Positions 20,833 to 62,538 of a stretch of DNA of 64,000 nt are shown piece by piece (the first letter of the stretch is position 1; each line of letters begins with the position of its first letter). Source of the DNA: an uncultured Gammaproteobacteria bacterium (GTDB lineage Bacteria > Pseudomonadota > Gammaproteobacteria > Steroidobacterales > Rariloculaceae); contig CAVUTF010000033.1 of the NCBI GenBank assembly GCA_963744305.1, forward strand, positions 63,991 through 127,990, given 5' to 3'. The translations under genes and the position numbers were made by a program. The notes under the pieces were generated by a model. The model searched no databases. It was not told the origin of the DNA and saw nothing but the letters and a program-made list of their open reading frames with translations.

Positions 20833-20841
20833 GCTCAACTC

Positions 20842-21852
20842 CTAGTTTGTCACGCGTGCCGCGCTCGCATCCGCGGGCGCTGAGCTCAAGCTTCGGTAGA
20901 CGGCGTCGACGAATTGCTCGGTGGTCCAAAAACCGTTGTCGGCGCCGTAGCGTCCATCGTAGTCGCGCGTGGGCTTCGCGGCCTGCACCTGCCGCAGGCT
21001 CATGCCCATCTCGATCATCGCGGCGACGCGGTCGCGAATGATCGTGACCATATCACGATACTCGACGACGTCGGCTTCGTCCGCCAATCGCCCGTGGCCC
21101 GGGATCACCATTGTCCCGCCTTCTTGTTTCTCCGCAGGCACGGTGAGCGCAATGATCGCGTTGAGCGCCGCGACGACGCCGTCGATGCCGCCGCCGTCCT
21201 CGGCGCGAATCACGGGGTACAACGTCGTCGAGAACACGTCGCCCGCGCTGATCACGTCGGAACGCCGGAAGAACACGATGCTGTCGCCATCGGTGTGCGC
21301 CGCGGGCAGATGTTGGATCTGCACGGCTTCACCGTTGAAGAATAGATCTTTCTGCGGCACGAAGAACGTGTCGGTCGGCCACGCTTCGAACGGCGGCGGC
21401 GCCTTCTGCCCCGACATCCTCACGAGCACGTTCTCGTGCGCGATGACTGTCGCGCCGATTCCGGCGTCAGCGATTGCGCCGGAGACGTTGCCGCCCGCGA
21501 TCGTGCTGCCGGCGCGCGCGATCTGCTCGTTGCCGCCCACGTGGTCGGAGTGCCAGTGCGTGTTGATCACGTAGCGGATAGGCGCGGAGGAGATCTGCGC
21601 GATCGCGCCCAGCAACGCCTCCGACGCCGTGGCGAGCTTCGTGTCGACGACGAGCACGCCATCCTCGCCGACTTGCACAGTCGTGTTGCCGCCGGCACCG
21701 ACGAGCATGTAGATGTTGTCGCGCACCGGCCAGACTGCGGGCGCGGGCGACGCGAGACGGGCGTCCTGCTGTGCACGAGCCGCCGTGAGGGCGAGCGCCG
21801 AGGCGAGCGCTGCGACGATCACCGCGCGGGCGAACGTCACGACGCGCGGCAT
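20842..21852 (-). CDS. MBL-fold metallo-hydrolase, secreted
   Basis: The signal peptide MPRVVTFARAVIVAALASALALTAARAQ is followed by the metal motif INTHWHSDHVGGN. Later blocks are AAHTDGDSIVFF and VIPGHG. The start is taken at the internal ATG of the 630-aa ORF. Confidence 0.8.
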   Translation of the reverse strand: MPRVVTFARAVIVAALASALALTAARAQQDARLASPAPAVWPVRDNIYMLVGAGGNTTVQVGEDGVLVVDTKLATASEALLGAIAQISSAPIRYVINTHWHSDHVGGNEQIARAGSTIAGGNVSGAIADAGIGATVIAHENVLVRMSGQKAPPPFEAWPTDTFFVPQKDLFFNGEAVQIQHLPAAHTDGDSIVFFRRSDVISAGDVFSTTLYPVIRAEDGGGIDGVVAALNAIIALTVPAEKQEGGTMVIPGHGRLADEADVVEYRDMVTIIRDRVAAMIEMGMSLRQVQAAKPTRDYDGRYGADNGFWTTEQFVDAVYRSLSSAPADASAARVTN

Positions 21853-22604
21853 GGTTGCGGGTTCCAGCGCGCTTCGTCGGGCTCGCGCCTGAAGTGTGAG
21901 CTCGTGACGAAGCGCGTGTTCAAGTATTTCGGATCCTCGACGATCGCCGTGACCATGAGCCACTCGTCGCCGTTGGGCGCGCGGAAGCGATCGAAATACT
22001 CCGTGAGCACGGCGTCCTCGCTGTACGGAACACCGTTGCGGCGCAGCCAGCCCGGCAGGAGATTCGTCGTGATCACCTTGAGATACCCGCCAGGCCGCTG
22101 CTGCCCGCCGCCCGCGCCGGCGAGCCCGGGCCCGCCGGGCGGAGGCAACGGCCGCACCCATTCTGCGGCTGAGTGCCCCTGCAGCGATCGCGCACCGGGA
22201 GCGCCACTGCCGTCGAAGGTAAACCGCCGAGTCTGTCGCCCCGCGTCCGTCTCGATCACGAGCGCGTCGTCCCCATCCCAAGCGATTCGCAAGCGGGTCG
22301 GCATACGCATGAGCGCTGCCGCCCCGTACGCCTCGCACCCGCCATCCTGCGAAGGCTCCCACAGATCCGCGATGCGACGGCCTTCGTCGTTCAGCGGCAC
22401 GCTCGCGTAGTCGCCGTGCGGCGGCGTCACCATGCGCCAGCGCCAATCCTCGTTGACGATCGCGACCCACTGGCCGGTAAAGTCGAGCGCCGCGGACTCG
22501 CGGGGCGTTTGCGGCGGCGCGGAAGATGCGGGCGGCTGTGCATGCACACCGATGGCGCCGGGAAGCAGAACGGCGGCAGCGGCAAGCGCGCGAGGCCAGC
22601 TCAT
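21837..22604 (-). CDS. family A'' secreted protein (uncharacterised)
   Basis: Signal peptide MSWPRALAAAAVLLPGAIGVHAQ. Blocks are IAWDGDDALVIETD and LPGWLRRNGVPYSEDAVLTEYFDRF...IVEDPKYLN. It parallels 22601-23443, and its start overlaps the upstream stop (ATGA). Confidence 0.6.
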   Translation of the reverse strand: MSWPRALAAAAVLLPGAIGVHAQPPASSAPPQTPRESAALDFTGQWVAIVNEDWRWRMVTPPHGDYASVPLNDEGRRIADLWEPSQDGGCEAYGAAALMRMPTRLRIAWDGDDALVIETDAGRQTRRFTFDGSGAPGARSLQGHSAAEWVRPLPPPGGPGLAGAGGGQQRPGGYLKVITTNLLPGWLRRNGVPYSEDAVLTEYFDRFRAPNGDEWLMVTAIVEDPKYLNTRFVTSSHFRREPDEARWNPQPCRAS

Positions 22605-23443
22605 CGCAAGCGCTCCGCGTATTCCGGCAGTGCGGTCTGCGCGCCACCGCGCGCCGCCTCGACCGGCAACCGGTGCTCGGCGGCGAAGTCGTCGATGAAC
22701 GGGTTTTGCCCCGGTAAGTAGTGCGGCACATCACCGGGCGCGCGCAGCACCTCGACGACGGACTCGCACGGATACGGCGTCATCGTTCCGTTCGGCGAGA
22801 ACAGGAACTCGTTCGTTTTCACGAGCGGCTCGGTTAGGTAGACAGGATCCTCTACGATCATCACATGCGTGAGCACGTCTCCGTAGCGGTGGAACCGATC
22901 CGTCATCGTCGCGCGATCGCTGAGCGGCAAGCCGTTGCGGCGCATCCAACCCGCCTTGAGATGAGTCGTCTTCACGACGAGCACGTCGCCTTCCCAGCTG
23001 CCCGTCGAGAATCCCTGCCAGGTGTGCGGCGCATACTCCGGCGGATGCTGCCGGCCGTCCATCCAAATCTCCCGATGCTGCTCCTGCCACGCGATGTGCG
23101 TGTGGATCGTGAGGAGCTGCTGCGTGTCCTCGTCGCGGTCTTCCCAGATACGCAGCACGCCGACGCCTCTGAATCCGTAGGTGGACGGGTGTGGTTTGCA
23201 TTGATGCTCGGGCATCGACAGGAGCGACGCATCCCAGCTCTCGGCGCGCAGGCGCGCAGCGTCGTTGATCGGCAAACCGAGATAGTCGCCGATCGCGGGC
23301 CCCGGAATGCGCTCGTCAACGTCCTCGTGGAATAACGGGTTCCAGTAGCCGACGAGATTGAGCTGCGCCGATACCGGGAGCGCATGGACGCATGCGAGCG
23401 CAGCACTCAGCCACGCAAAGCGTGCGCGATTCCAACCTGGCAT
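22601..23443 (-). CDS. family A'' secreted protein (uncharacterised)
   Basis: A signal peptide (...ACVHALPVSAQ) is followed by HQCKPHPSTYGFRG, SWEGDVLVVKTTHLKAGWMRRNGLPLSDRATMTDRFHRY and IVEDPVYLTEP. RBS GGGGGAG lies upstream of the ATG at 23443. Confidence 0.6.
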   Translation of the reverse strand: MPGWNRARFAWLSAALACVHALPVSAQLNLVGYWNPLFHEDVDERIPGPAIGDYLGLPINDAARLRAESWDASLLSMPEHQCKPHPSTYGFRGVGVLRIWEDRDEDTQQLLTIHTHIAWQEQHREIWMDGRQHPPEYAPHTWQGFSTGSWEGDVLVVKTTHLKAGWMRRNGLPLSDRATMTDRFHRYGDVLTHVMIVEDPVYLTEPLVKTNEFLFSPNGTMTPYPCESVVEVLRAPGDVPHYLPGQNPFIDDFAAEHRLPVEAARGGAQTALPEYAERLR

Positions 23444-23504
23444 GCGATTTGGCTCCCCCTTACACGCCGCAGCGCGTAGTGTTGTCACGCTTCGCCGCAC
23501 TTCA

Positions 23505-23533
23505 CTAATACTTTCTTTGCAACGCATATGCAA
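23505..23533 (-). promoter_or_regulatory. candidate sigma70 promoter overlapping a TTGCA-N7-TGCAA dyad
   Basis: On the minus strand: TTGCAT (23533-23528), a 17-nt spacer, then TATTAG (23510-23505), about 60 nt upstream of the 23443 start. The dyad TTGCAACGCATATGCAA spans 23517-23533. Confidence 0.3.
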
Positions 23534-23561
23534 TCCGGGCATCGCTGTCGAGAATGCGCTG

Positions 23562-24092
23562 CTACCAAAACTCGGGCGGCTCGACTTCCTCGATGCGACT
23601 CATGAAATCGATCTGCGCATAACGACCCGCAAAGTACAAGAGCGGTCGCCGATCTGCGGCCTCCAAGTGCGTGATGCGGCCGATGAACAGCGTGTGATCG
23701 CCGCACTCGGGAGTGGCGATGACCTCGGCCGTTAGGCCCGCCACGGCGCCGTCGAGCAGCGGCGTCCCGGCGCGGTAGACGAACTCGGCTCGAGCCACTT
23801 CGCGCCCACGGCCTGCGAACTGCGTCGACAGGTGCTGCTGCCACTGACTGAGGAATGACACCCCGTAGCGCCGCGTTTCCTGCAACCGCGCATGCATCCG
23901 TGCGCGCACGTTGATCGACACGACGCACAGCATCGGCTCGAGCGAACCGGCCATGAACGCGTTCGCAGTCATGCCGTACACCTCGTTGCCGATGCTAGTG
24001 GTAATCACGGTGACGCCCGTGGGGAAACGGCTCATGACCTGCCGGAATAGGTCCGAAGATGCGTGCGGAACGGCTGTCGTCTGCGTGTTCAT
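23562..24092 (-). CDS. flavin reductase (HpaC/NtaB-like, FMN-binding split barrel)
   Basis: FRQVMSRFPTGVTVITT...GMTANAFMAGSLEPMLCVVSI...GDHTLFIGRI is the flavin reductase-like domain used by two-component HpaB-type monooxygenases. Confidence 0.82.
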   Translation of the reverse strand: MNTQTTAVPHASSDLFRQVMSRFPTGVTVITTSIGNEVYGMTANAFMAGSLEPMLCVVSINVRARMHARLQETRRYGVSFLSQWQQHLSTQFAGRGREVARAEFVYRAGTPLLDGAVAGLTAEVIATPECGDHTLFIGRITHLEAADRRPLLYFAGRYAQIDFMSRIEEVEPPEFW

Positions 24093-24214
24093 CGAGTTGC
24101 TCTTGACGATCGTGGTGTGGCTGTTGTGTCACAAACGTAAGGGCGCCGCCAATACTTTTTCCTATCAGGCTATGCGCGCGGCGCATGACGACGCATTGAC
24201 GGAAGCCCTCGAGA

Positions 24215-25228
24215 TCAGTCTTTGCCGACTCTCCGGAAAAGGCGCTTGACCTCGGAGATCACGTAATCGCGCGCCGGCGACGGATAGTCCATTTGCCGCT
24301 GCGTCAGGTGGATCGGAAAGACAATCTCGTCGTCGAGCGGGAGCGCAAACATCTCGCCTGCTGCTACTTCGCGCTCGACGACGACGAGCGGCAAGATCGT
24401 AACGAGGTCGGACTCGAGGATCAGTTTCCGTATCACCGGCGACAGCGGCTGCACTTCGAACAGCGGCTCCGGGGGCGCAACGCCGTGACGCAAGAAGTAG
24501 TTGTCGTAGGTGATGCGCGGCACCGTGCCGGTAGCGGGCAGTATCCACCGGGCCGCGACGAGATCGCTGACGCTGACATCCGCGCGGCGCGTAAGCGGAT
24601 GGTCGGCGCGAATGACTACGACGGCGGAGAACTGCGTCAGCAGTTGCGTGCTGATGCCGACGACCCGCCCCTCGATCGGCGGCGGTCCGATGAAGAACGC
24701 TAGCTTGCCGGACATCAACCTCGGCGCGAACGATTCGAAGTCGCCGACGCTGATCGTCAGGCGCATGCCTGGCCGGTCGCGCAGCACTTGCTCGATCAGA
24801 GGTGCCGCGATGAGCGTCTCCGTGAGCCAGCTCATCCCGAAATAGATGCGCTCGGTGTGGCTGCGGTCCCGGGAATCGCGCAATTCCTGCTCGGCTAGCA
24901 CCAGGTTCGCGTCGATGATGCGAGCATACTTCAACAACCGAGCGCCGACGGCCGTCAGCTCGGCGCCGCGCGGACCGCGCTCAACGAGCTTGACGCCGAG
25001 CTCCTCTTCGACGGCACGGATGCTGCGCGACAACGCTGGCTGGGTCATCGCGAGAGAATTCGCCGCCGAGCGAATGCTACCCTTATCGGCCACCTCGATG
25101 AGCTGCCGCAAATGCTTCACGTCGAGATGCCGCAGCAGGTTGCGCGCGTCGTCCAAAGTAGCTCCGAAGTCCCTACGGCGAGGAAGTATACTCAGCTGAG
25201 ACGACCGGAAAGAGTCATGAGTCGCCAA
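24215..25228 (-). CDS. LysR family transcriptional regulator (true start probably TTG at 25156)
   Basis: The HTH reads LDVKHLRQLIEVADKGSIRSAANSLAMTQPALSRSIRAVEEELGVKLVERGPRG, followed by a LysR substrate-binding domain. The annotated ATG would overlap the divergent gene, whereas TTG at 25156 gives a normal N-terminus. Confidence 0.85.
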   Translation of the reverse strand: MATHDSFRSSQLSILPRRRDFGATLDDARNLLRHLDVKHLRQLIEVADKGSIRSAANSLAMTQPALSRSIRAVEEELGVKLVERGPRGAELTAVGARLLKYARIIDANLVLAEQELRDSRDRSHTERIYFGMSWLTETLIAAPLIEQVLRDRPGMRLTISVGDFESFAPRLMSGKLAFFIGPPPIEGRVVGISTQLLTQFSAVVVIRADHPLTRRADVSVSDLVAARWILPATGTVPRITYDNYFLRHGVAPPEPLFEVQPLSPVIRKLILESDLVTILPLVVVEREVAAGEMFALPLDDEIVFPIHLTQRQMDYPSPARDYVISEVKRLFRRVGKD

Positions 25229-50652: not shown

Positions 50653-51132
50653 TCAGATGAAGCCGATTGCGCGGCCCATGAACGCCACGCCGAACCACAG
50701 CGACACCGACACGACTGCAACCACCTTCGCGAGGCCCGATTGCGACCGCCCCGCGTCGCCCAATGCGATCGGCTGGCGCACGGCGAACGTGAAGATGATC
50801 GCCGCGAGCAGAAAAGACATCTTCCACCAGTACGCCACGTTGTAGTAGTACTTCGACGCCGCTAGCGACGCGAACAGCAAAAAGCCCGTCGCGAGAATCA
50901 GGATGAGACTGCCGATGAGCCAAGGCCGCGCCGCAAGCGCGACGTCCGCGACGGGCTGGCGGCGGAAGCCAACTCCAAGCGTCCGCAAATCGACGACGAG
51001 CACCGCGCCGCCGATCACGGCGAGCGCAACCAGATGCACCGACTCGATCAGCGCAAAGGCGTAGAGCGAATTGTTGATTGCAACGGCGAATCCCGTCGCT
51101 TCGATCCACTCGAATGCCGACAATAGCGACAT
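50653..51132 (-). CDS. integral membrane protein, paralog of 51146-51682 (uncharacterised)
   Basis: There are 4-5 hydrophobic helices. It shares FEWIEATGFA / ITWVEATRFS, ES(V)H..., and a C-terminal W...GRxIGF/AY with its neighbour. Confidence 0.6.
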   Translation of the reverse strand: MSLLSAFEWIEATGFAVAINNSLYAFALIESVHLVALAVIGGAVLVVDLRTLGVGFRRQPVADVALAARPWLIGSLILILATGFLLFASLAASKYYYNVAYWWKMSFLLAAIIFTFAVRQPIALGDAGRSQSGLAKVVAVVSVSLWFGVAFMGRAIGFI

Positions 51133-51145: not shown

Positions 51146-51682
51146 CTAGACGATCGGCTCGAACCAGTTGTACGCGATCAGACGACCGCAGAACACGATT
51201 AAGATCCACAGAGTAACGGACACGACTCCGATGATGTGGGCGCTGCCAGGCAACGGCTTCGTGTCCCAATTGACTAGGCGCTTGCCGATGCCATAGTGAA
51301 ACGCAAGCGCGTTTAGGCCGGCCAGCACCAACGCAACGAGCTTGATCCGAAAGAAAATGTTGCCCCAGAACCGCACGGGCTCCGAGACGAACAACAGCAC
51401 CCCGCTGATCGTCATCACGATGAAGCCGACGAGAATGATCGGCGCGAGCCGATCCCACGTCTCGGACACCGAAGCGCTGCGTACACCGATGTTGAACAAA
51501 CGCAACTCCCAGAACAGCAGCAGCCCTAGGAAGATACACAGGCCGATCACGTGCACGCCGTCGACGATCGCCCACATGTAGACGGACTCGCGAAGGTCGG
51601 TGCTGAAACGCGTGGCTTCTACCCACGTGATGAAACTCAACCAAGACGACACTGATCGATTCCTCTTCAGAAGGGCGGTCAA
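51146..51682 (-). CDS. integral membrane protein, paralog of 50653-51132 (uncharacterised)
   Basis: 4-5 hydrophobic helices. It is in tandem with its paralog, separated by a 13-nt gap. Confidence 0.6.
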   Translation of the reverse strand: MTALLKRNRSVSSWLSFITWVEATRFSTDLRESVYMWAIVDGVHVIGLCIFLGLLLFWELRLFNIGVRSASVSETWDRLAPIILVGFIVMTISGVLLFVSEPVRFWGNIFFRIKLVALVLAGLNALAFHYGIGKRLVNWDTKPLPGSAHIIGVVSVTLWILIVFCGRLIAYNWFEPIV

Positions 51683-51876: not shown

Positions 51877-52149
51877 GTGGCGCTTGGCGGCGCCCGTGGC
51901 GCCTGGGAGGGCGCACGGCCGGCGGCCGAATTCTCCCCGCCCTGCGTTCAGGGTGGTCCTCCGGGAGGCCCGGGCGCGCCGAACGCGCCGCCGACGGCCG
52001 AGGACTTCGACAATCTGCCGGCCACCCTGGCGTGGACGGGCGCTGATCGCCGGCTCGGCGACACGGACGCGGCCGAAACGGGCGCGGCCAAGCTCACGTT
52101 CTTCGACTCAGCGTATAAACAACAAATGCAGGGCGGGACTCATCCATGA
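51877..52149 (+). CDS. possible small ORF translationally coupled to the family A gene (weak)
   Basis: The stop TGA overlaps the ATG of 52146 (ATGA), and third positions are GC-rich. There is no family match, and an ATG at 51872 in another frame gives a signal-like MAWRLAAPVA, so the N-terminus may be frameshifted. Confidence 0.2.
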   Translation: MALGGARGAWEGARPAAEFSPPCVQGGPPGGPGAPNAPPTAEDFDNLPATLAWTGADRRLGDTDAAETGAAKLTFFDSAYKQQMQGGTHP

Positions 52150-52991
52150 AACCGATGCGAGATCAGTTTTCCGGCCAGATGAAGGTCGTTGTGGGCACCG
52201 CGATCGCGGCCGGCCTTGCCGTGATCGCGCTCGTCGCGATAAAGATGCCGACGAGCGAAGCGCAATCGGCGACTCAACCCGCTCGAATCGGCGGCCATCC
52301 GAACTTGAACGGCGTCTGGCAGGCGATCAACACGGCTTACTGGAATCTCGAGGATCACTCGGCCGAAGGGTTGTCCAACTTCTGGCAACTGGGTGCGATC
52401 GCCGCGATCCCCGCCGGGCAGAGCGTGATCGAGGGCGGCACGATTCCGTACCTGCCGGCCGCGCTCGCAAAGCGCGACGAAAACCGCGCCGGCTGGCCCA
52501 AGAGCGATCCCGAGGCCAAGTGCTACATGCCCGGGATTCCGCGCGCGACCTACATGCCGTTTCCGTTCCGCATCGTTCAAGGCGACCGCGACATCTTGTT
52601 CGTCTACGAGTTTGCGAGCGCGAACCGCATTGTTCATATGTCAAATCACCAGGAGCCGCCCGTAGACAGCTGGATGGGCTGGTCGAACGGGCGCTGGGAA
52701 GGTGACACACTGGTCATCGAGGTCACCGGCAACAACGACCAAACTTGGTTCGATCGCGCGGGCAACCATCATTCGGTAGCGCTCAAAGTAACCGAGCGCT
52801 ACACGCTGATGGGCGACAATCACCTGCAATACGAGGCGACCATCGAGGATCCGGACACCTTCTCGCGGCCCTGGAAAATCTCGATGCCGCTCTACAAGCG
52901 CCTGGAGCCGAACGTGCAGCTGCTCGAGTTCAAATGCGTGGAGTTCTCCGAAGAGCTACTCTATGGCGACTTGACCAAGAAATCCGAATAA
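52146..52991 (+). CDS. family A secreted/anchored protein (uncharacterised), intact
   Basis: An N-terminal hydrophobic anchor is followed by HPNLNGVWQ, KCYMPGIPRATYMPFPFRIVQ, RWEGDTLVIEVTGNND, VTERY and IEDPDTFSRPW. Confidence 0.7.
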   Translation: MKPMRDQFSGQMKVVVGTAIAAGLAVIALVAIKMPTSEAQSATQPARIGGHPNLNGVWQAINTAYWNLEDHSAEGLSNFWQLGAIAAIPAGQSVIEGGTIPYLPAALAKRDENRAGWPKSDPEAKCYMPGIPRATYMPFPFRIVQGDRDILFVYEFASANRIVHMSNHQEPPVDSWMGWSNGRWEGDTLVIEVTGNNDQTWFDRAGNHHSVALKVTERYTLMGDNHLQYEATIEDPDTFSRPWKISMPLYKRLEPNVQLLEFKCVEFSEELLYGDLTKKSE

Positions 52992-53018: not shown

Positions 53019-53441
53019 GTGATGCGTACCAAACAGTTGAGCGTTGTCGCCGGTGCCCTGCTGCTGTGCGTTCCCACGTTGCCCGTGCTTGCACATCACG
53101 CGTTCGCGGCAGAGTTCGACGCGAATCGTCCGGTCAAGCTCGAAGGCGTCGTCACGAAGATGGAGTGGATCAACCCGCACTCGTGGATTCATATCGACGT
53201 GAAGGGCGATGACGGCTCGGTGCAAAAGTGGATGATCGAAGGTGGCGCTCCGAACGCTCTGCTGCGCCGCGGCTGGAATCGCGACTCGCTGAAAGCCGGC
53301 ACTCAGATCTCGGTACAGGGCTTTCAGGCAAAAGACGGATCGATGCGCGCGAACGGCCGCGACATCACGTTCGCTGATGGCAGCAAGCTCTTCGTCGGCT
53401 CCTCCGGCACCGGCGCACCGGACGAGCGCCCGGGGCAATAA
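53019..53441 (+). CDS. family B secreted protein (uncharacterised), intact
   Basis: The signal peptide reads ...PTLPVLA|HHAFAAEFD. KMEWINPHSWIHIDV and ALLRRGWNRDSLKAGTQISVQG follow. RBS GGAGAG. It starts 27 nt after the family A gene. The ATG at 53022 is an alternative start. Confidence 0.72.
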   Translation: MMRTKQLSVVAGALLLCVPTLPVLAHHAFAAEFDANRPVKLEGVVTKMEWINPHSWIHIDVKGDDGSVQKWMIEGGAPNALLRRGWNRDSLKAGTQISVQGFQAKDGSMRANGRDITFADGSKLFVGSSGTGAPDERPGQ

Positions 53442-53459: not shown

Positions 53460-53486
53460 CGGGGTCAGGCACCGTGCCTGACCCCG
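53460..53486. terminator. 13-bp GC-rich hairpin between convergent genes (probable terminator)
   Basis: CGGGGTCAGGCAC-c-GTGCCTGACCCCG is a near-perfect palindrome between the 3' ends of 53019-53441 (+) and 53494-54750 (-). The flanking T/A runs are weak. Confidence 0.5.
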
Positions 53487-53493: not shown

Positions 53494-54750
53494 CTAAGGG
53501 GCTGGCTCGATGCGCAGCAGCGCGCCGTCGTCCTCGTCGGTGATCACGTACAGCAGCCCGTCGGGGCCTTGGCGCACGTCGCGAATGCGTTGGTGCAGAT
53601 CCGATAGCAGGCGCTCGCGGCGCAGGTCCTCGAGCATGTCGCTGAGCACGACGCGCTCGAGACCGCCGGTGCGCGGAATCTCGCCGATGCGCGCACTGCC
53701 GACGAACAGATTACCCTTCCACGCGGGGAAGCGATCGCCCGTGTAGACCGCGAGTCCGGTCGGCGCGATCGACGGCAGCCAGAGAATCTGCGGCTGCTCG
53801 ATGCCCTCGCCCACGGGACTCACCGTGTAACGCGGTCCGTTGTAATTGCGTCCGAAGCTGTACTTCGGCCAACCGTAGTTGCGCCCCGGCAGTATCAGAT
53901 TGACCTCGTCGCCGCCGTTCGGCCCGTGCTCGGCCGCGAGCACGGCGCCCGACGGGTGCACGGTCAAGCCGAGCTGGTCGCGATGGCCGATCGAGAACAC
54001 TTGCGGCTTCGCGGCCGCATGGCTCGCGAACGGGTTGTCGTCCGGAGCCGAGCCGTCGTCGCGCAAGCGCAAGACCTTGCCGTAAACGCTGGCCGGATCC
54101 TGCGCGGCTTCGCCGAACGGCGCGCCGGTCGTGACGTACATTATTCGATCCGGACCGAACGCAAGCCGCGAGCCGCTCCCTCCGTTCGCAATATCTGCGA
54201 CGTAGAGATCCTTCACGTCCGTGAGCGCCTTGCCGTCGAACACGCCGCGCGCGACCGCGAGCGCGGTCTGGCGTTGCGCGGGCGGCAGCGCCGCCTGGTC
54301 ACCCGGCCCGGGCTTGTTGTACGTGAAATAGACGAAGCGGTTCTGCGCGAATTGCGGATGCACGACCACGTCGAAAAGGCCGACATTGCGCACAGGTCCG
54401 GGCGCGGGTGCGCCGCTGATCGGCTCCGGATCGAGTGCCGGCACAGCGTCGTTCGCGGCGTTATGGACCAGGCGTAGGCGCGCTCCGCGCTCGCTGATCA
54501 GCGCATCGCCGTTCGGCAAGAACGCCAGAGAGAACGGATGCGGCAAACCGCGCGCGACGATGCTCACGCGGATTCCGTGCTGCTCGGCGGTATCGAATAC
54601 GTATGGCTCGTTCCGCAGCACGACCGGCGCCACGCCCAAGTCGGGCTGCTGCTGCGCAAACACAGCGGCGCCGGTCGCCGCCAACACGACTGCGGCGCAA
54701 GCGGCCGCTTTCACTGCGCGCACGCTGCGCGCGCGATTCCAATATGACAT
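53494..54750 (-). CDS. PQQ-dependent sugar dehydrogenase (soluble glucose/sorbosone dehydrogenase-type 6-blade propeller), intact
   Basis: A signal peptide is followed by GLPHPFSLAFLPNGDALISER, FVYFTY, GKVLRLRDDGSAPDDNPF, IGHRDQLGL, EHGPNGGDEVN, GRNYGWP and GPDGLLYVITD. Confidence 0.85.
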   Translation of the reverse strand: MSYWNRARSVRAVKAAACAAVVLAATGAAVFAQQQPDLGVAPVVLRNEPYVFDTAEQHGIRVSIVARGLPHPFSLAFLPNGDALISERGARLRLVHNAANDAVPALDPEPISGAPAPGPVRNVGLFDVVVHPQFAQNRFVYFTYNKPGPGDQAALPPAQRQTALAVARGVFDGKALTDVKDLYVADIANGGSGSRLAFGPDRIMYVTTGAPFGEAAQDPASVYGKVLRLRDDGSAPDDNPFASHAAAKPQVFSIGHRDQLGLTVHPSGAVLAAEHGPNGGDEVNLILPGRNYGWPKYSFGRNYNGPRYTVSPVGEGIEQPQILWLPSIAPTGLAVYTGDRFPAWKGNLFVGSARIGEIPRTGGLERVVLSDMLEDLRRERLLSDLHQRIRDVRQGPDGLLYVITDEDDGALLRIEPAP

Positions 54751-54768
54751 GTGATATTTACCTCTTCG

Positions 54769-55716
54769 TTATTCCCAGCCGGTCTGCGACAGATGGTCCG
54801 CACGGAACCCCATCGCCTCGATCTCGTGGAGCTTACCGCCGCTCACCTTATAGATATGTGCCGCCGGTAGGTCGAAGGCATCGAAAGGCAGGTCGAGCTT
54901 CGGAAGCTCGGGAACGCCCTTGATCACGACGAACTTCTGCGCCATCGAATGCCGGAAATGCGACAGGCCGAACACGAGACCCGTCTCCACGTCCGCGATC
55001 TCCACCCGGCGATTGTCGATCGTGTCGATGTACGCCATCGAGCCCGTGTCGAGCTGCGCGGCGCAGCCCATGGCGCCCATCGTGCCGAGACCGGGCGTCG
55101 CGGGTGGCGGATTGCCAGTGGTCTGCATGCCGTTCTCGCGGCGCACGCAGTCGTCGGCGAACGGCGCGAGGCGGCCGTTGTTGTCGTCGAGCGCGTCATA
55201 GTAAGACGCGCCTATCTTGAGCATCTCCTCGCGCGTGTTGCGTTGCGCTGCCGGCACCGCCGCCGCGAACGCGGCCCTCGGCGTTTGCAGATTCGGCAGG
55301 TTGCGTTCCCCTAAGCCGCGCGCGATCAAATGCTCGGCTTCGGTGATCTTGCCGTCCTGCACCTTCAGGCGAAGCGCGAGCTCGACCGGCTTGCCGGCCT
55401 CCTGCAGCACACCGAGGAAGCCGACCTGCTGGGAGACCGGGTCCGGCACGTAGATTTTGAACGTCGTGGGAACAGCCGACGCCGTCTTCCAAAGACCTTC
55501 GCCGACTTTCGTCGCCGTCACGTTCTCGACGAGCTTTGCGTTCGCCGCAATCGGTACGCGGGCGGGATCGTGCGCGACGAGCGCGGCGAGATAGGAATCC
55601 ACGAGCCCGCTCAGGCACGCTCGGTCGCAGCTCGCCGTGCGTTGCTGCGCCCACGACGCTGCCGCGGCGCCCACGAGCACCACCGCACTCGCGCGCCACG
55701 AGGTCGTTACTCTCAT
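54769..55716 (-). CDS. secreted hypothetical protein
   Basis: A signal peptide (..AAASWAQQ) is followed by a Cys-containing mature protein (CDRACLSGLVDSYLAALVAHDP...). There is a 4-nt overlap with the upstream VOC gene. I cannot name a family with confidence. Confidence 0.55.
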   Translation of the reverse strand: MRVTTSWRASAVVLVGAAAASWAQQRTASCDRACLSGLVDSYLAALVAHDPARVPIAANAKLVENVTATKVGEGLWKTASAVPTTFKIYVPDPVSQQVGFLGVLQEAGKPVELALRLKVQDGKITEAEHLIARGLGERNLPNLQTPRAAFAAAVPAAQRNTREEMLKIGASYYDALDDNNGRLAPFADDCVRRENGMQTTGNPPPATPGLGTMGAMGCAAQLDTGSMAYIDTIDNRRVEIADVETGLVFGLSHFRHSMAQKFVVIKGVPELPKLDLPFDAFDLPAAHIYKVSGGKLHEIEAMGFRADHLSQTGWE

Positions 55717-56621
55717 TGTTGCGAGCCCTCTCGCGCCCGCCTGCTTGCCCCTGTCTCTGCGAAGTAGTTGGTGATCCCGTCCGGATCGTCGAGCCAGATC
55801 GTGCGCAGCGAGCCCGCGGAACCCGACAACGGATTGTCGATCGTCACGCCCTCGGACTCGGCGAGCGCGGCGACGACATCGACGTTCGACACGACGTATT
55901 GAATTCCGCCGCTGCCGGTATCCGCCGGCAGCGCCCCGAAGCTGCGCAGGTTGATCGTGGTGGTACCGTGCCGGAACGGATATTTCGTCGTCCCGAACAA
56001 CGCGTCGGGCGCCGGCGGCAGCTCTTCCAGGCCGACGAAGTCGCGATAGAACGCGCGGCTGCGCGCAAGGTCAGAAACGGTCACACCGACCTCGATCTGC
56101 GCAAGGACGTCGGCCGAGGCGCCAGGTACGACGACGAGCTCGACGGGCTGGCCATCGGGATCGTTCACGAGCGCGACCTTGCGCTTCGAGTCGGCCACGG
56201 AACGAAACGCCGGCTCGGAAAGCCCGTGCGCGCGGAAACGCTCGGAGAGCGCCGCTTCGTCGGCGAAGAACAAGGTGACCAAACGCACGCCCGTTGCGTC
56301 GCGGACGCCGCCCGGTTGGTAAGTGCGATCGGCGACGCGCCCCGTGAGCTTGAGCTCGGACCCTCCGGCCTGAAAGCGCGCGACGCCGCCGGTGCCGTCG
56401 GGCCGCACGTTCAGCGTTTGGAGCTGCTTCAAGCCGAGCACGTCGCCGTAGAACTCGAACATCTTCTCGCGATCGACAGTGTGGCGCCGGAACACGTTCA
56501 TGGACGGCTGCCAGAGCGTGGCCCCGACCGGCGACGCCGAATCGCCGGACGCCGTGATCGCGGCAACCAGCAATGCAGCTGCCAAGAAGATTCGATGAAA
56601 TCGATGCTTGATGTTCGACAT
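55713..56621 (-). CDS. VOC (glyoxalase/bleomycin-resistance/extradiol dioxygenase) family protein, secreted, two VOC modules
   Basis: A signal peptide (FLAAALLVAAITASG) is followed by two beta-alpha-beta-beta-beta modules: FYGDVLGLKQL...DPDGQPVELV and FYRDFVGLEEL...DDPDGITNYF. Confidence 0.75.
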   Translation of the reverse strand: MSNIKHRFHRIFLAAALLVAAITASGDSASPVGATLWQPSMNVFRRHTVDREKMFEFYGDVLGLKQLQTLNVRPDGTGGVARFQAGGSELKLTGRVADRTYQPGGVRDATGVRLVTLFFADEAALSERFRAHGLSEPAFRSVADSKRKVALVNDPDGQPVELVVVPGASADVLAQIEVGVTVSDLARSRAFYRDFVGLEELPPAPDALFGTTKYPFRHGTTTINLRSFGALPADTGSGGIQYVVSNVDVVAALAESEGVTIDNPLSGSAGSLRTIWLDDPDGITNYFAETGASRRAREGSQQ

Positions 56622-56653
56622 TTCCGCCCCCTGCACCTATCAGCAATAACGTC

Positions 56654-57621
56654 TCATTGAGCCACGCTCGCGAGCGCAGCTTGCGCGCACTCGTTTGCAA
56701 CCGTGAGATACCGACGCACGGAGTCCGCGCCGACGACATACGGGTGCGCGTCTCCGGACTTGCGCGCCGCGAGCTTCGGCAGCTTGACCTTCGTGCCATC
56801 GTAGTCGGTGTGATTCGACAGCAGCACGTCCGCGCCGGCCGCCGCCGCAATGTCGCGCATGCGCGCGGCAGACGCGGCATAGGCCTTGAAGCGCTCGGGC
56901 TCGGGGCCGAAGTTGAACAATGTGCCGCCCCACAGCGCGCCTACGTGCGCGCGCCCGCCGTCGCGCAACGGGATCAGCGTCGACACGGTGCCGTTCGTGT
57001 GCCCCGGCGTGAGGTACATCGTGAGCGTCGTGTCGCCGAGCGTGAGCTTCTGGCCGTCGGTGATTTCCATGTCGCGGCGCGGCTTCCAGGGCGGATTGTC
57101 GCGCTCGAGCATGTCCCAGTCCGCAGCACTCATCAGGAGCCGTGCGCCGAAGCGTTCCTGCAGAAGCTTCGCACCGCCGGCGTGGTCGAGATGGCCGTGG
57201 CTGATCAGGACGTACTCGATGTCGGCCGGATCCATGCCGAGCTTGCGCAAGCCATCGACGACCTCGTCCTCGACCGAATAGTCGAAGAGCGGATCGATGA
57301 CGATGATGCCTGCGCTCGTGCGGACCGCCCAGGCCGTGAACTCCGTCATGCCGACGAAATAGAAGTTGTCGAACACTTTCGCGGGCTCCGCGTGCCACGA
57401 CTCGCGCGGCGGCGTCGGCGGAGGCGGCCGACGCGGATCGGCGGCCGCCACGGCGGCGGCCGCAGCCGGGCCGGGGCAGAGCCGGTCGACCATCGCGGCG
57501 TGCTCGCCCGCCGGCGGCGCGAGCGGCCGCGATGTGCCGTTCGACGGCCGGGTTCGGCGATTGAGCGAAGACGGCGCCAGCGAGACGTCACCGCGACGAA
57601 GCCGAAGACGAACGCTTTCAT
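56654..57621 (-). CDS. MBL-fold metallo-hydrolase (subclass B3-like), secreted; N-terminal frameshift near 57580
   Basis: FYFVGMTEFTAWAV, ISHGHLDHAGG, TPGHTNG and SNHTD are present. The signal-peptide start MKAFVFGFVAVTS lies in another frame (ORF 57346-57621). RBS GGGGGAG. Confidence 0.8.
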
Positions 57622-57649
57622 CTATGCAACTCCCCCGCGCCAACCCGCC

Positions 57650-59386
57650 TCATGGCAGTGCGAACACGAAGATTTCCGCAGCGCCGGCATCCGATGGCAA
57701 CTCGGGCGTGACGCGCCGCGTTGCCATCGCGACGAGCGAGGCGCCCGTCGTGACCGCGACGTATTGCTTGCCGTCGACTGCGAACGTGACGGGGAAACCG
57801 CTGACCGGCGTCGCCCAAATTCGTCTCCCAAAGCACGGCGCCGGTCGTGTCATCGAATGCCTTGAAATTGCCCGCCGCGTCGCCGCCGAACACGAGGCCG
57901 CCGCCCGTGGCCGCGAGCGACATCATTCCGCTGCGCTGCTCGTGCTTCCACCGCGTGGCGCCGGTTTCGGCGGAGACAGCCCACACGCTGCCGACCTTGT
58001 CCGTGCCGGGCGCGATGAGGGGCTCGCTCTGGAATCCGTAGACGAGCTTCGGGTCGCGCTCGCCGGTTTGCACCGTGGCTTTCATGCACATGTTCTGCAT
58101 CGGCATGTACATCGCGTTGGTGCGCGGGCTGTACGCGCCCGCCGGCCAGTTCTTACCGCCGTTGGTGCCGGGACACACCGTGAGCTCGTGACCCGCGTGT
58201 GTGAACAGCAGGTTCGGGATTCACGGTGACCTTGCCAGTCGCGCCGTCGATGCTGCTCACGACATTCTGCGTCACGGTTGGCCGTGCCCAGAGAAACTCG
58301 CCGGTCTCCCGATCGAGCGTGTAGACGATCCCGGTCTTGCCGGGAACGCCCGTGATCACCTTGCGGCGCTCGCCGCGGCGCACGCGCGGGTTGATCCACG
58401 CAACCTCGTCGGCGTCGGGTGCGACCGCAGTGTCGACGAGCAGCCGCTCGAACGGGTGATCGAGGTCCCAATGATCGTTGAGATGCTGGTAGTACCAGAC
58501 GATGCGGCCCGTGTCGGCGTCGAGCGCGAGCGTCGAGTTGTGATAAAGGTGCTGCTTGTCGTTGCCGCCCAGGATGAACTTCGGGGCCGGGATCGTTACC
58601 GACGTGCCGATGTAGATGCGATCGAGCCCGGGATCGTAGCTCGGCACCATCCATGTGCCGACATGCCAGCGCTGCTCCATCGGCACGTTGCCCCAGCTCT
58701 CATCGCCGGGCTCGCCCGGCCGCGGAATCGTACGCGTGCGCCAGAGCTCCTTGCCGGTGGCCGCATCATGCGCCGTGATCACGCACGACTCGTGAGTGGC
58801 GGCCGGCTGACACTGGCGCCCCGTGATCACCTTGCCGTTTGCGACGATTGGTCCCGAGCTCGCGCGCGCGGGCAGCGTCGCCTCGAGCACGGGCGTCTCC
58901 CACACGAGCTTGCCGGTGCGCGCATCGAGCGCGTACATCTGGTTGTCCGAGCTCGCATCGATCAGGGTCGTTCCCCAGATCGCGATATTGCGGTTCGTGC
59001 CTCCCTGGACGCCCTCCGGAAGCGTGCGCTTGTACTCCCACAGGAGCTCGCCTGACTTCGCGTCGAACGCCTGGATGTAGTCGCCGCGGTTCGGCACGTA
59101 CATCACGCCGTCGTAGACGAGCGGCGTGGACTCCTGGATGCCCTCGCCCATCGCATGCGTCCACACGCGCGTGAGACCGCCCGACGTTGCGCTTGTTGAT
59201 TTGATCGAGCGGACTGTAGCCCCAACCGTCGAGCGTGCGCCGCCACATCAGCCAATTCGCTGGATCGGGCTTCTGCAGCATCGCATCCGTGACCGGGACG
59301 AAAGAACGCTCGTCATCTGCGCTCGCAGGCATCGCAGCCGCCAACACCAACGCTGCCGGCAGTACTCGTAACAGATCAGAGCTCAT
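57650..59386 (-). pseudogene. PQQ-dependent dehydrogenase, paralog 3, about 3-4 frame breaks
   Basis: A signal peptide is followed by NWLMWRRTLDGWGYSPLDQINKRNV, ESTPLVYDGVMYVP, YALDARTGKLVWE, TGRQCQPAATHESCVITAHDAATGKELW, DHWDLDHPFE, CPGTNGGKNW and GKQYVAVTTG...IFVFALP. These are distributed over ORFs 58766-59386, 58153-59166, 57618-58178 and 57650-57853. Confidence 0.8.
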
Positions 59387-59434
59387 TTATTCCCCCAAGG
59401 ACGGTGTCAGGCACCGTTTTGTTGCTTTCGGTGA

Positions 59435-60619
59435 TCAGTCCCAGAACTTCCACCACGGCTTCGCCGGAGGCGCCGGCACGTCCGGCGCGTCGGCCGTCGC
59501 TGACGCTTCTTGGCCGGCGCGCGAGTAGTCGACGAACGTGAGCTCGGTGCACTTGTCCGGCGCGTATGGCAAGTCGGCCACGCCGATCGTGTCGGAGCCC
59601 GTGTACTGTCCGACGATGTTCACGGGATCCTCCGCGGTGTAGCTGCGCGTGATCTGCATCGTCTCCGGGTTCAGGGAGAACCGCTCGACGACGCGCAGTT
59701 GAGCGCTGTTCATGATCGGCGGCGACAAGACACCGGGCGCGAACCCGACCGTGTCGACGATCAACACGTCGTTTTCCCAGCGGCCGATCGAGTGCCCCGC
59801 GCGGCTCGGCGCGACGTTGGCCGGGTGCTCCGTCATGTCCATGTGGATCGTCCGCGTGAAACCGAGCTGGCCGTACTGCAACGTGATCGTGTCGCCGCCC
59901 TGCGTGATTCGGTTCACCGGGCCGTCGAAGGTCCAGTCGAACAGGATGCTCGTGGTCTCGCAGCGCATCCGGGGGTTCTCGGTGGTGTACGTGTCGAACG
60001 CGTCGGCTGCCGCCTTGCCGGCCTCCGTGTACTGCACATCGCGCGTGCGGTACTGGCGCGCGTTTGCTTCGGTCTCTTCGCCCGGTCGAAAACTCTCGGC
60101 TTCGCTGAGCGGCACGAGCGCGCCGCCGCGCCCGCGCGGATCCGTCATGACGAGCTGCTCGGGCGCCCAGTCGCCCGAAATGTTCGGCTCGCCGCTCGGC
60201 AGGCGCGCCGGCCGCGCTATCGGCTGCACCGGCGCCGGAGCTTTCGCGAGCTGGCCGTAGCGATCGGCGCTCGTGCCGTCGGCGAACACGATCGTGGAGA
60301 GATAGCACGAATTCGGGTCATCGCGATCGGGCGCGCCCGTGATCGTGACCTCCTCGCCGTTCTTGAACAGCTCGGGCGACCAGCCCGAGCGGCGCAGCAC
60401 GGTGGCCGCTCGCATCTCGCAGCGCCAGTTCGCCGTCTGCCCGTCTTCTTTGGTGACGGTGAGATACAGCCAGGAATGCGGATTCACGAAGTCGACGCCG
60501 GTGACCGTGCCTTTGATCGCGACTTCGCCGTTGCGGTCGAAGTTGCCGAAGCCGTGATGCGCCAATGCCGCGCTAGCGAGCAATGCAACCGCCGCAGAAA
60601 CGCTGACAGCTCGAATCAT
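59435..60619 (-). CDS. family B + family A fusion protein (uncharacterised), intact
   Basis: The signal peptide reads ...LASAALA|HHGFGNFD. Then GVDFVNPHSWLYLTV and VLRRSGWSPE (B domain) are followed by a linker and EPNISGDWAPE, RWENDVLIVDTVGFA, VVERF and AEDPVNIVG (A domain). RBS AAGGGAG. Confidence 0.72.
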   Translation of the reverse strand: MIRAVSVSAAVALLASAALAHHGFGNFDRNGEVAIKGTVTGVDFVNPHSWLYLTVTKEDGQTANWRCEMRAATVLRRSGWSPELFKNGEEVTITGAPDRDDPNSCYLSTIVFADGTSADRYGQLAKAPAPVQPIARPARLPSGEPNISGDWAPEQLVMTDPRGRGGALVPLSEAESFRPGEETEANARQYRTRDVQYTEAGKAAADAFDTYTTENPRMRCETTSILFDWTFDGPVNRITQGGDTITLQYGQLGFTRTIHMDMTEHPANVAPSRAGHSIGRWENDVLIVDTVGFAPGVLSPPIMNSAQLRVVERFSLNPETMQITRSYTAEDPVNIVGQYTGSDTIGVADLPYAPDKCTELTFVDYSRAGQEASATADAPDVPAPPAKPWWKFWD

Positions 60620-60765
60620 CGCCCGCTCCCTTGGCAGATTGGCCGCGTTCCATAGTAACAAACAACCCGCGGGCCAACCTGCGCTTTCGCCGCTCGAGCG
60701 GAGGCGTGTTGGGCACCTGATATCATGCGGCGCCATGGCGATGTGTCGCGGTCCGGAGGGCAGGA

Positions 60766-61809
60766 AGTGGTGAGAGAGAGCATTTGCTTGGGCGTTCTGT
60801 TGGCGCCGGTGGCAGAGCTTTTGCCATCACAGCGTCGCGTCCTGGTTCGATTCGAGCCAGGTGACGGAGCTTGAAGGCGAGCTCACCGAGCTCAAGTGGC
60901 AGAACCCGCACATCGTGTTCACTCTGAAGGTCACGGGCGAGGATGGACGCGAAACGCTCTGGGATATGGAGTCGCTGTCATTGAGCGGCGTGACCCGGAC
61001 GGGTCTTACACCCGACCTGCTCGTCGTCGGCCAAACCTTGAAGGTGGCCGGCAATCCGTCGCGACGAAACCTCAACAACGTGTTCGTGCGCAACATTCTG
61101 CTGCCGAGCGGCCAAGAGATCGTGCTCGGCCAGCAAGCGCGCTGGACGGCCGACTCGTCGCTGCGCGGCAGTGAAGTCCTACGAGAGCGCGACGGCGACA
61201 CATCGGCGCCCGCGCAAGGCATCTTCCGCGTCTGGAGCACGGGCTCCGGCACGTCGATGATCTTTCCGGAGAACATCACACCGAACTTCGACTTCAGCGT
61301 CTATCCCCTGACGCCCGCTGCAAAAAAAGTCCTCGACGAGTTCGATACATTTGAGGACGATCCGACGCGCAACTGCGCCCCGAAAGGCATGCCGTTGCTC
61401 ATGGAGCAGCCGTACCCGATGCAATTCGCGCGCGAGGGGGACGACATCGTGCTGCGGCTCGAGGAATACGACTCCCGCCGTGTGATTCACATGGACGCTG
61501 AGTCCGCGTCGGCGGCCGCTCGAGCGCCCGCTTCGCTCCTGGGCTACTCCGTCGGACGCTGGGAGGGCCGAGCGCTCGTCGTGACGACGACGCGCGTCAA
61601 TTTCGGCCACTTCGACAGCGTCGGAATCCCGTTGAGCGAGGCCGCCGAGATTCGTCGAGCGGTTCACGCCGAGCGAGGACGGCGCCCGCCTCGACTACGC
61701 GCTGACCGTGACCGATGCCGCCACATTCACGCGTCCCGTCGAGACGTCCAAGCACTGGATCTGGCTGCCCGGGATACGGTCGGCCGCTACGCCTGCTCTC
61801 GCGCAATAG
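60766..61809 (+). pseudogene. family B + family A fusion protein, about 3-4 frame breaks
   Basis: GTG follows GGAGG. The signal-like (V)RESICLGVLLAPVAEL then shifts at a T4 run (60819-60822) to HHSVASWFD...ELKWQNPHIVFTLKV. NCAPKGMPLLMEQPYPMQFA and RWEGRALVVTTTRVN follow. The C-terminus VERFTPSEDGARLDYALTVTD is in another frame. Confidence 0.6.
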
Positions 61810-61822
61810 CCGCGCCGCCGCG

Positions 61823-62538
61823 TCAGGCGGCGAGCATGCCGCTCAGCTTCGCGAGCATGTCGGCCTCGGCGGGGCGACCGGTGATCTGGCACGGACGCGA
61901 GCGCAGCAAGTCGTCCGCCACGGCCGCGCACCGGGACTCTCCGCGAGCACGCGGTTGAGGGTCGGTGTTTCCTCGAGCTTCAAAGCGTCGCCGAACACTT
62001 GTTGCGCGATGCTGAGCTCCTCCCAAAGAAAACAATCCGCGAGCATCACCGGCCGTTCACTCGTGCTCGCGTGCCAGCCCACTCATCGAGCGTGCGCTCG
62101 AGCGAGACCAAGTGAAGACGCAACCTCTCTAGGGTGCGCTTGAGCATCGCGGCGACTTCCACTCCGGGTACGCGACGTCCGCCCAGATCACCATGCCGAT
62201 CGGAACCATCACATCGATATAAGACTCGACGCGAGCATCTCGTGCCGAACGCTGTCTTCGTCGGACAGCCGCGCTCGGTCGCCGAGCTGTTCGTGCAGAA
62301 ACGCTTGAATGACGAGCATTTCGGCGATCAGCCGCTCGTTCCAGCGTAGCACCGGCAGCTTGTGAAACGGTCCGCAGACCTGCGGTCGGGACTATTGCGA
62401 GTCGCTCACTGAAGGTGCCCGAGAGCGGCACCCGGTGATCCTCGAAGGCGACGTCGCCGACAGCAGGTAATAGCGCAGATACTGCGCACGGCCGCGCGCG
62501 TCGAAATACGTCAATCGGATTCGGGGCTTGGGCGGCAT
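61823..62538 (-). pseudogene. glutathione S-transferase family protein, several frame breaks
   Basis: The N-terminus MPPKPRIRLTYFDARGRAQYLRYYLL(SADVAFED) is the GST thioredoxin-like pattern. The helical C-terminal domain fragments (VMLADCFLWEELSIAQQVFGD..., ...MLAKLSGMLAA) lie in ORFs 62392, 62129, 61843 and 61823, in different frames. Confidence 0.5.

Follow-up and report, generated by a model that had tools for sequence, protein, structure and literature searches.

The stretch of DNA considered here (64,000 nucleotides of contig CAVUTF010000033.1, positions 63,991 to 127,990 of the forward strand, from an uncultured gammaproteobacterium of the family Rariloculaceae; hereafter the window) raises the question of why a small exported protein should begin, once its signal peptide has been removed, with two consecutive histidine residues. 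The protein is the product of the gene at 53022-53441 (+), which we call copy B2 and which belongs to the DUF6152 family (Pfam PF19649; family B). A preliminary description of this DNA had proposed that B2 and its relatives in the window mature to an N-terminal His-His (HH) and might use it to hold a metal, possibly copper. Sequence comparison confirms that the His-His at the predicted mature N-terminus is a property of the whole family and not a product of chance, and a mononuclear transition-metal site appears to be the best single explanation for it, one in which we place slightly more belief than doubt. DUF6152 is already catalogued in Pfam. Its function and its His-His feature are unpublished in the literature searched, in which no paper mentions DUF6152, PF19649 or DUF6644 (a membrane protein family discussed below).

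The target gene and its product

B2 matches the Pfam DUF6152 profile with a score of 121.5 bits (cutoff 27; E 1.7e-35) over profile positions 6-94 of 98. Neither B2 nor a copy fused to a second domain (89.8 bits against the same profile) matches any other Pfam family, no NCBIfam model matches B2, and no chain in the Protein Data Bank (PDB) is matched by B2 or by the fusion in sequence or profile searches. The GC content at third codon positions of the open reading frame (ORF) is 0.75, a coding-type value indicating that the ORF is real. Two start codons are available, GTG at 53019 and ATG at 53022, and the second is favoured because a GGAGAG ribosome-binding site stands upstream of it and because a database protein with 100% identity to B2 (P0001) is 139 amino acids long, the length of the precursor encoded by 53022-53441 (stop codon included).

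The precursor begins with a predicted Sec signal peptide, MRTKQLSVVAGALLLCVPTLPVLA (53022-53093, +), for which analysis of the n-, h- and c-regions places the cut after V-L-A; here and throughout, signal-peptide cleavage is a rule-based prediction. Family invariance and signal-peptide rules together identify His-His (53094-53099, +) as the predicted residues 1 and 2 of the mature protein. A third invariant histidine (His29 in mature numbering) lies in a W-I-N-P-H motif (53166-53180, +), which an AlphaFold2 model assigns to the turn of the beta1-beta2 hairpin, and a conserved glutamate at the end of strand beta3 (53238-53240, +; E73 in precursor numbering, E49 in mature numbering) is a candidate extra ligand.

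Family-wide conservation of the N-terminus

A profile built from the window copies was used to collect relatives, each hit being the representative of a cluster at 50% identity. The profile matched 16,663 clusters at E<=1e-3 (9,952 at E<=1e-10), and residues were counted over the best 150 of the 16,663 representatives. His1 is found in 147/148 and His2 in 148/148, with alanine at position -1 in 136/148 and aspartate at +9 in 138/148. The N-P-H motif is conserved to a similar degree (Asn 148/150, Pro 150/150, His 149/150), as is the glutamate that closes strand 3 (145/150), and there is no conserved Met or Cys column among the 150 representatives. The distance from Met1 to His-His has a mode of 23 residues, position -3 is occupied by A, V, L, T, I, S or G, and 121/130 representatives fit the classical rules (positive n-region, hydrophobic core and suitable residues at -3 and -1) with the cut falling exactly before His-His. 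By these rules, the mature protein very probably starts with His-His, in line with the earlier proposal that its first residue is histidine. This is not a common arrangement: in the training set of SignalP 6.0, only ~2.6% of secreted proteins have histidine as residue 1 (PMC12537917).

Since the top hits of a profile search lean towards the consensus, a second sample was scored, comprising 23 bystander paralogues that were present in the fetched loci and had been chosen by no pattern containing HH. His-His and the N-P-H histidine are retained in 23/23 of these and the glutamate in 20/23, so that the invariance of the N-terminus suggested by the preliminary description extends to paralogues not selected for it. 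Among 35 orthologues of B2 (75-93% identity), the pairwise identity of signal-peptide columns is 64% and that of mature columns 85%, and invariance begins at A-H-H.

Mature B2-type proteins are 75-93% identical across metagenome-assembled genomes (MAGs) of Gammaproteobacteria, Alphaproteobacteria and Acidobacteriota (loci L003-L082 of the set described below). Identity this high across distant phyla is unusual; strong constraint or horizontal transfer, or the two together, may account for it.

Six copies in the window

A six-frame motif scan, tblastn and hidden Markov model (HMM) searches of the window located six DUF6152 copies, the same ones listed in the preliminary description. Copies B1 (5718-6098, +; TALA/HHSVALYD ... 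WTSPH, where the slash marks the predicted cut) and B2 (PVLA/HHAFAAEFD ... WINPH) are stand-alone genes, B1 being followed by a frameshifted gene of a second family, family A, at ~6439-7098. B3 (18809-19225, +; GAAA/HHSFSAEFD) contains several frameshifts and lies downstream of tandem family A genes at 17271-18748. The remaining three, B4 (59438-60619, -; AALA/HHGFGNFD ... FVNPH), B5 (7165-8202, -; SAAA/HHSYTEFD ... WQNPH) and B6 (60774-61958, +; HHSVASWFD ... WQNPH), are the N-terminal domains of B-A fusions of ~350-394 amino acids; B4 is intact, at 394 amino acids, and B5 has an internal frameshift. The view of family B as a small protein is thus right for the stand-alone copies and wrong for half of the six. 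The B4 and B6 fusions are arranged head to head, diverging around 60620-60770.

In B1 to B5, a hydrophobic signal peptide with small residues at -3 and -1 ends directly before His-His. It had been claimed that an A-x-A site precedes His-His in every copy: the position of the cut is borne out in these five, the A-x-A form not in B2, which has V-L-A. The sixth copy, B6, does read HHSVASWFD as described, but in the window it has no in-frame start codon and its signal peptide is out of frame. A 99%-identical contig, L001, has this signal peptide intact, and the N-terminus there reads VVRASVWLGMLLLAPVAGFC/HHSVASWFD (..LLLAPVAGFC/HHS), the two contigs differing by indels at this point. A lipoprotein reading of this ...GFC/HH copy was rejected because phenylalanine at -1 misfits a lipobox. 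The further invariant histidine that had been reported within [WF]-x-[NS]-P-H is present ~28 residues after His1 in the window copies, in agreement with its near-invariance among the representatives; in B3 the motif is recovered as SNPH alone, in a different frame and without the aromatic residue.

The region of the window from ~5000 to 25000 holds many frameshift-broken genes (for example at 6099-7119, 7165-8316, 17166-19266, 18943-20838 and 15989-16894), among them family A genes, B3, B5, an HpaB-like monooxygenase and fragments of dehydrogenases dependent on pyrroloquinoline quinone (PQQ). Assembly indels, probably from long reads, are a more likely cause of the frameshifted copies than pseudogene formation, because the indels found in one and the same gene differ between the window and L001.

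Domain order in fusions and tandem proteins

If His-His has to lie at a free N-terminus in order to function, DUF6152 should not be found behind another domain. DUF6152 is N-terminal in 158/158 proteins or ORFs that hold both DUF6152 and family A, ~27 of which came from a representative search with an order-neutral profile of family B alone and most of the others from a B-A fusion query. The one case that seems to run A-B results from reading through a frameshift within the window. Among separate genes, family A lies upstream of family B in 85 cases and downstream in 29. Fusion in this commoner gene order would bury His-His, and the product that it would give is never seen, in keeping with a requirement for a free N-terminus.

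Tandem DUF6152-DUF6152 proteins point the same way. In none of the ten found (0/10) does the internal second domain keep all three histidines: 4/10 retain HH with the N-P-H histidine changed to Arg or Asn, and in 6/10 at least one histidine of the HH pair is gone, most of these six lacking the N-P-H histidine as well. Both the fusion order and the degeneracy of the internal domains are consistent, at the level of sequence, with a site that needs a free N-terminus. The pattern HHSY..YD with Arg or Asn in place of the N-P-H histidine recurs in the internal domains of P0242, P0250, P0252 and P0254, and may represent either a degenerate or an alternative site.

Predicted fold

AlphaFold2 models were obtained for mature B2 (mean predicted local distance difference test score, pLDDT, 80.6) and for the mature B4 fusion (59438-60559; pLDDT 80.6, predicted template modelling score 0.76). 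In both models five strands form a barrel, and a helix is inserted between strands 3 and 4, the arrangement of the oligonucleotide/oligosaccharide-binding (OB) fold, with pLDDT >90 in the OB core. Foldseek searches of the PDB with the models place generic OB folds at the top (SSB, PriB and the anticodon domain of LysRS, with E ~1e-3), and no CusF/SilF, TIMP (tissue inhibitor of metalloproteinases) or histidine-brace protein appears in the top 50 matches. As modelled, the fold of DUF6152 is a generic OB fold. In the B2 model, N-P-H occupies the beta1-beta2 turn, between strands 8-26 and 29-37, and the conserved glutamate is placed at the end of beta3.

Mean-field direct coupling analysis (DCA) gave a first run dominated by gap artefacts; the filtered run, with an effective number of sequences of 132, recovers the strand pairings of the OB fold. 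The method is uninformative for invariant residues.

The case for a metal site

We favour a mononuclear transition-metal site as the explanation because three histidines and a glutamate are near-absolutely invariant in an exported protein family. A histidine at position 2 adds a known amine/amide/imidazole mode of coordination for Cu(II). Beyond the residues themselves, there is precedent: all four of the conserved families of N-terminal-His secreted proteins that have been assayed bound Cu2+ or Ni2+, and an N-terminal histidine alone can chelate a metal (PMC12537917). Cleavage by signal peptidase I directly before His-His would expose the alpha-amine, His1 and His2 at the N-terminus of the Sec-exported OB-fold module, on a short flexible arm of the form HH-x-[FVY]-x(2-4)-[FY]-D. 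In our proposal a single transition-metal ion is chelated by this arm, and the histidine of the NPH turn and the glutamate at the end of beta3 probably join in binding it. That all three histidines contribute to one and the same site is a tentative part of the proposal, which we hold with a little more doubt than belief. On chemical grounds Cu(II) would be the likeliest metal, with Ni(II) or Zn(II) as further possibilities; copper specifically is a more tentative suggestion again, and we would sooner expect it to fail than to hold. A role as lanthanide or calcium chaperone for PQQ enzymes was also considered and rejected, because the conserved residues are mainly histidines and form no carboxylate cluster.

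Several observations weigh against a metal site of this kind. In the B2 model, residues 1-3 have pLDDT <50 and the first ten residues average 63-67, so that the arm is left unplaced and the model gives no evidence of a pre-organised site. The DCA couplings of the arm are weak (S3-V74, E7-K42, F4-G88 and A6-W25) and are not used as evidence. The conservation counts come from the best 150 profile hits, a sample biased towards consensus-like members. In some internal domains HH persists although Arg or Asn stands in place of the NPH histidine, which implies that HH and this histidine may not form one site. Finally, genes for copper, zinc or nickel homeostasis are not among the recurrent neighbours of family B in the set of 80 loci described below.

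Some of these same observations are what would be expected if the protein carried no intrinsic metal, with His-His, the aspartate, the NPH histidine and the glutamate forming instead a ligand-binding or acid-base site on the customary binding face of the OB fold (for an anionic organic molecule, a cofactor or haem, for example), or with the N-terminus plugging the active site of a partner in the manner of TIMP. Generic OB folds usually bind ligands, the arm is not fixed in the models, internal domains with HH and Arg in place of the NPH histidine would suit the binding of anions, and the arm could have the obligatory partner, family A, as its target. Against this, three invariant histidines, two of them at the N-terminus in 147/148 sequences and never behind another domain, are the signature of metal chelation, and the comparable families all proved to bind metals when assayed (PMC12537917). 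The Cys1 and disulfides of TIMP are, moreover, absent from DUF6152. We consider a metal-free protein unlikely, though it is the most probable of the three alternatives to our proposal that are raised in this paper.

The family A partner

Any account of DUF6152 must also accommodate its partner. The gene immediately preceding B2 (52146-52991, +) encodes an exported family A protein of 281 amino acids and ends 30 bp upstream of B2. This protein has no match in Pfam, NCBIfam or the PDB, and no paper or solved structure was found for either family A or DUF6152 in searches of the literature and the PDB. Within the window, relatives of family A flank or are fused to every family B copy, with further family A stretches at 6439-7098, 7228-7587, 9000-9458, 17271-18748, 22826-23077 and 61212-61640.

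The partnership was followed in a wider set of loci. A scan of 185,579 species genomes yielded 584 relatives of the B2 subfamily, from which 80 loci were kept; since the B2 subfamily served as query, the set is biased towards B2-like members. The loci come mostly from MAGs of Acidobacteriota (Vicinamibacterales and Bryobacterales) and of Gamma- and Alphaproteobacteria. With an iterated family A HMM, a family A sequence that is either fused to family B or its same-strand neighbour is found in 76/80 loci and for 98/109 family B ORFs. Between one and three family A genes stand beside DUF6152, the order A-A-B being frequent, and B-A fusions number in the thousands. Where the preliminary description had pointed to PQQ dehydrogenases as neighbours, it is family A that emerges as the invariant partner. 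Family A is a large exported family that deserves a family definition of its own.

In the model of the B4 fusion, the A domain is a beta-barrel resembling fatty acid-binding and cellular retinoic acid-binding proteins (FABP/CRABP), the nearest PDB matches being cellular retinoic-acid-binding proteins (E ~1e-2). Family A conserves a Cys pair, the motif G-x-S-x-G-x-W-x-G-x-T-L-V-V, Q, R, E-R, Y and D-P, and no His cluster is seen among its conserved residues.

The module is also present in cultured hosts whose genomes were annotated by the Prokaryotic Genome Annotation Pipeline. In Croceibacterium atlanticum, two DUF6152 genes are followed by family A and then by a TonB-dependent receptor. On plasmid NZ_CP117419 of Novosphingobium humi KACC 19094 (genes PQ457_RS21820-21840), two DUF6644 genes are divergent from a run comprising a hypothetical gene, family A and DUF6152. 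The A/HH start is kept in both.

Gene neighbourhood and possible roles

The window contains three genes for PQQ dehydrogenases and two for GSDH, the soluble glucose/sorbosone dehydrogenase of a PQQ-dependent family. One GSDH gene (53494-54750, -; PF07995, E 2.2e-96) is convergent with B2. The 52-bp gap separating the two contains a perfect hairpin with an 11-bp stem and a 3-nt loop (53461-53485; read directly from the sequence, no strand assigned); it is terminator-like, lacks a T run and was not flagged by a scan for consensus terminators, and this inverted repeat is probably a bidirectional terminator. The same GSDH gene ends a tight same-strand run (53494-60619, -) that comprises the B4-A fusion, a PQQ dehydrogenase directly downstream of it (~57650-59247, largest in-frame piece 58153-59247, -; PF01011) and genes for a metallo-beta-lactamase fold, a glyoxalase fold, DUF8021 and GSDH.

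This setting invites the idea that metal-loaded B, or B-A, serves as electron acceptor for the haem-less PQQ dehydrogenases and the GSDH encoded beside it, as amicyanin or azurin does for other quinoproteins. The three PQQ dehydrogenase and two GSDH genes of the window lie among six family B copies, and the order fusion, PQQ dehydrogenase, GSDH is repeated in loci L001, L086 and L088. Over the whole set, a PQQ dehydrogenase is found within 10 kb of family B in 21/80 loci, and a cytochrome-c'-like CxxCH protein occurs in 10/80 loci. The PQQ association reported in the preliminary description is therefore recurrent without being universal: 59/80 loci have no such enzyme nearby, and the fusion loci L087 and L089-L091 have none adjacent. 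An electron carrier of this type would also lack the Cys or Met ligand for which no conserved column exists in DUF6152. Type-2 copper sites built from histidine and an amine have a high reorganisation energy and make poor electron carriers, which counts further against the proposal. Of the three alternatives to our proposal, that of a redox partner seems to us the least probable.

A second set of neighbours suggests a different role for a bound metal. Divergent from the A-B pair of the window are two genes encoding DUF6644 four-helix membrane proteins (50653-51132 and 51146-51682, -; PF20349). In the 80 loci, DUF6644 occurs in 13, always within 3 kb of family B and always paired (two copies in 12 loci, four in one), and the divergent arrangement next to A-B is shared by the window, L001 and the Novosphingobium plasmid. 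Helix 2 of DUF6644 bears an invariant His and a conserved Glu, and the protein also has DLRxxG and GR motifs. Its sub-threshold Pfam matches are to DUF2214 (E 0.0015), UPF0093 and DUF4149, which we take to be CopD-like families. DUF6152 might thus capture a periplasmic metal through His-His and pass it to DUF6644, in a manner resembling the CopC/CopD, YcnI/YcnJ or 'anglerase'/HupE-UreJ systems, and N-terminal-His domains that feed permeases provide a precedent (PMC12537917).

Such trafficking is difficult to reconcile with the absence of DUF6644 from 67/80 loci and with an hhalign comparison of DUF6644 and E. coli YebZ (CopD) that is not significant (probability 0.3%). Metal regulators, P-type ATPases and multicopper oxidases are not recurrent nearby, and the obligatory family A barrel is given no role. 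Nor is the density of paralogues (six in the 64 kb of the window, and as many as seven within 20 kb at locus L056) that of a chaperone, and it likewise argues against the simple metallochaperone envisaged in the preliminary description. We regard metal trafficking as improbable, and as only marginally less so than a redox partnership.

Other recurrent neighbours include NHL propellers, carboxylesterases, transporters and MarR/TetR/LysR regulators. An HpaB-type 4-hydroxyphenylacetate 3-hydroxylase gene (19251-20838, -) is convergent with B3, from which it is separated by 26 bp, and an amidohydrolase_2 gene lies at 3526-4551; the two lend that part of the window a flavour of aromatic catabolism.

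Returning to our own proposal of a metal site at the N-terminus, we suggest a periplasmic system of two parts, in which DUF6152 may be the invariant head that bears the metal; the other component would be the variable FABP/lipocalin-like barrel of family A, which would probably give specificity for a ligand or substrate. Because paralogues are abundant, because the barrel partner is both obligatory and variable, and because the neighbours are catabolic (PQQ dehydrogenases, GSDH, esterases, an amidohydrolase, transporters and MarR/TetR/LysR regulators), the system may serve periplasmic oxidative or substrate-handling chemistry and not metal homeostasis. A bolder version would make it a two-module periplasmic metalloenzyme, in which an OB head with a copper centre resembling a histidine brace acts on small organic substrates presented by an interchangeable barrel. 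This would amount to oxidative chemistry like that of lytic polysaccharide monooxygenases (LPMOs) on a different scaffold and with non-polysaccharide substrates, its paralogues having diversified in soil Acidobacteriota and Proteobacteria to work alongside PQQ dehydrogenases in the oxidative breakdown of organic matter. Taken as one joint claim, this is speculative and unlikely to be correct in all its parts.

Comparison with known systems

The family is a very large one, with 16,663 clusters at 50% identity. Acidobacteriota and Proteobacteria that are abundant in soil have many copies in each genome, and Novosphingobium humi and Croceibacterium atlanticum are cultured hosts that carry the module. 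Should His-His indeed bind copper or another transition metal, an OB-fold class would be added to the short list of N-terminal-His metalloproteins and a function given to two large uncharacterised families at once; a missing accessory of periplasmic PQQ-dependent oxidation may also be revealed.

The preliminary description likened DUF6152 to LPMOs and to copper proteins of the CopC/YcnI type. A histidine brace is a T-shaped N3 site formed by the N-terminal amine and imidazole with the side chain of a second histidine (PMC10952591). DUF6152 shares with the proteins that have such a site (LPMOs of families AA9-AA17, CopC, YcnI, PmoB CuB and X325/Bim1) secretion, the exposure of His1 by cleavage and another invariant histidine further along the chain, so that the chelate of amine and imidazole is chemically available. 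The scaffolds are different, however: beta-sandwiches of immunoglobulin/fibronectin type III-like or cupredoxin-like type in those proteins, an OB fold in DUF6152, and neither Pfam nor the PDB links them in sequence. Its fold places DUF6152 outside the LPMO, CopC and YcnI families; what is shared is the principle of an N-terminal histidine, not homology. DUF6152 differs also in having an invariant second histidine at position 2, and in an N-terminus that AlphaFold2 does not fix. Either His2 or the NPH histidine, both invariant, could be the second histidine that completes a brace, residues 1-3 having pLDDT <50 in the model.

A closer parallel in principle is provided by the signal-strapping proteins (Ni-binding DUF4198, DUF6702 and the anglerases Ang-1 and Ang-2; PMC12537917), which are likewise bacterial, periplasmic domains of unknown function with a conserved histidine after the signal peptide, and for which binding of Cu2+ or Ni2+ is expected. 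These proteins are beta-sandwiches, whereas DUF6152 has an OB fold, and the N-terminal histidine is conserved in 99% of DUF6152 sequences as compared with 79% for DUF4198 (PMC12537917). The HH dyad, the obligatory calycin-like partner or fusion and the strong expansion of paralogues further set DUF6152 apart. The name DUF6152 has 0 occurrences in that paper (PMC12537917), and PF19649 is the only family matched by DUF6152; it is the principle alone that is shared.

With the Cu(I)/Ag(I) chaperones CusF and SilF, DUF6152 has in common a small periplasmic OB fold and metal binding, putative in its own case. CusF holds Cu(I) at a His-Met-Met(-Trp) site inside its barrel, whereas DUF6152 is without conserved Met, and no CusF Pfam match is found for DUF6152 at E up to 10. 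The resistance-nodulation-division efflux context of CusF/SilF is not conserved around DUF6152. The N-terminal domain of TIMP, in which the amine of residue 1 chelates the zinc of a partner, is similarly a secreted OB fold with a functional mature N-terminus. TIMP has Cys1, disulfides and an inhibitory action on metalloproteases, and neither these nor a protease neighbour is seen for DUF6152. In the CopC-CopD and YcnI-YcnJ pairs the membrane partner is of the CopD family, to which the DUF6644 neighbours of DUF6152 (13/80 loci) have only the sub-threshold matches and non-significant YebZ alignment given above.

Set beside these systems, DUF6152 offers a testable lead, as opposed to a demonstrated histidine brace, and on the sequence evidence is best read as a putative class of N-terminal-His secreted metalloprotein in its own right, distinguished by its OB fold, its His-His and its two-module construction.

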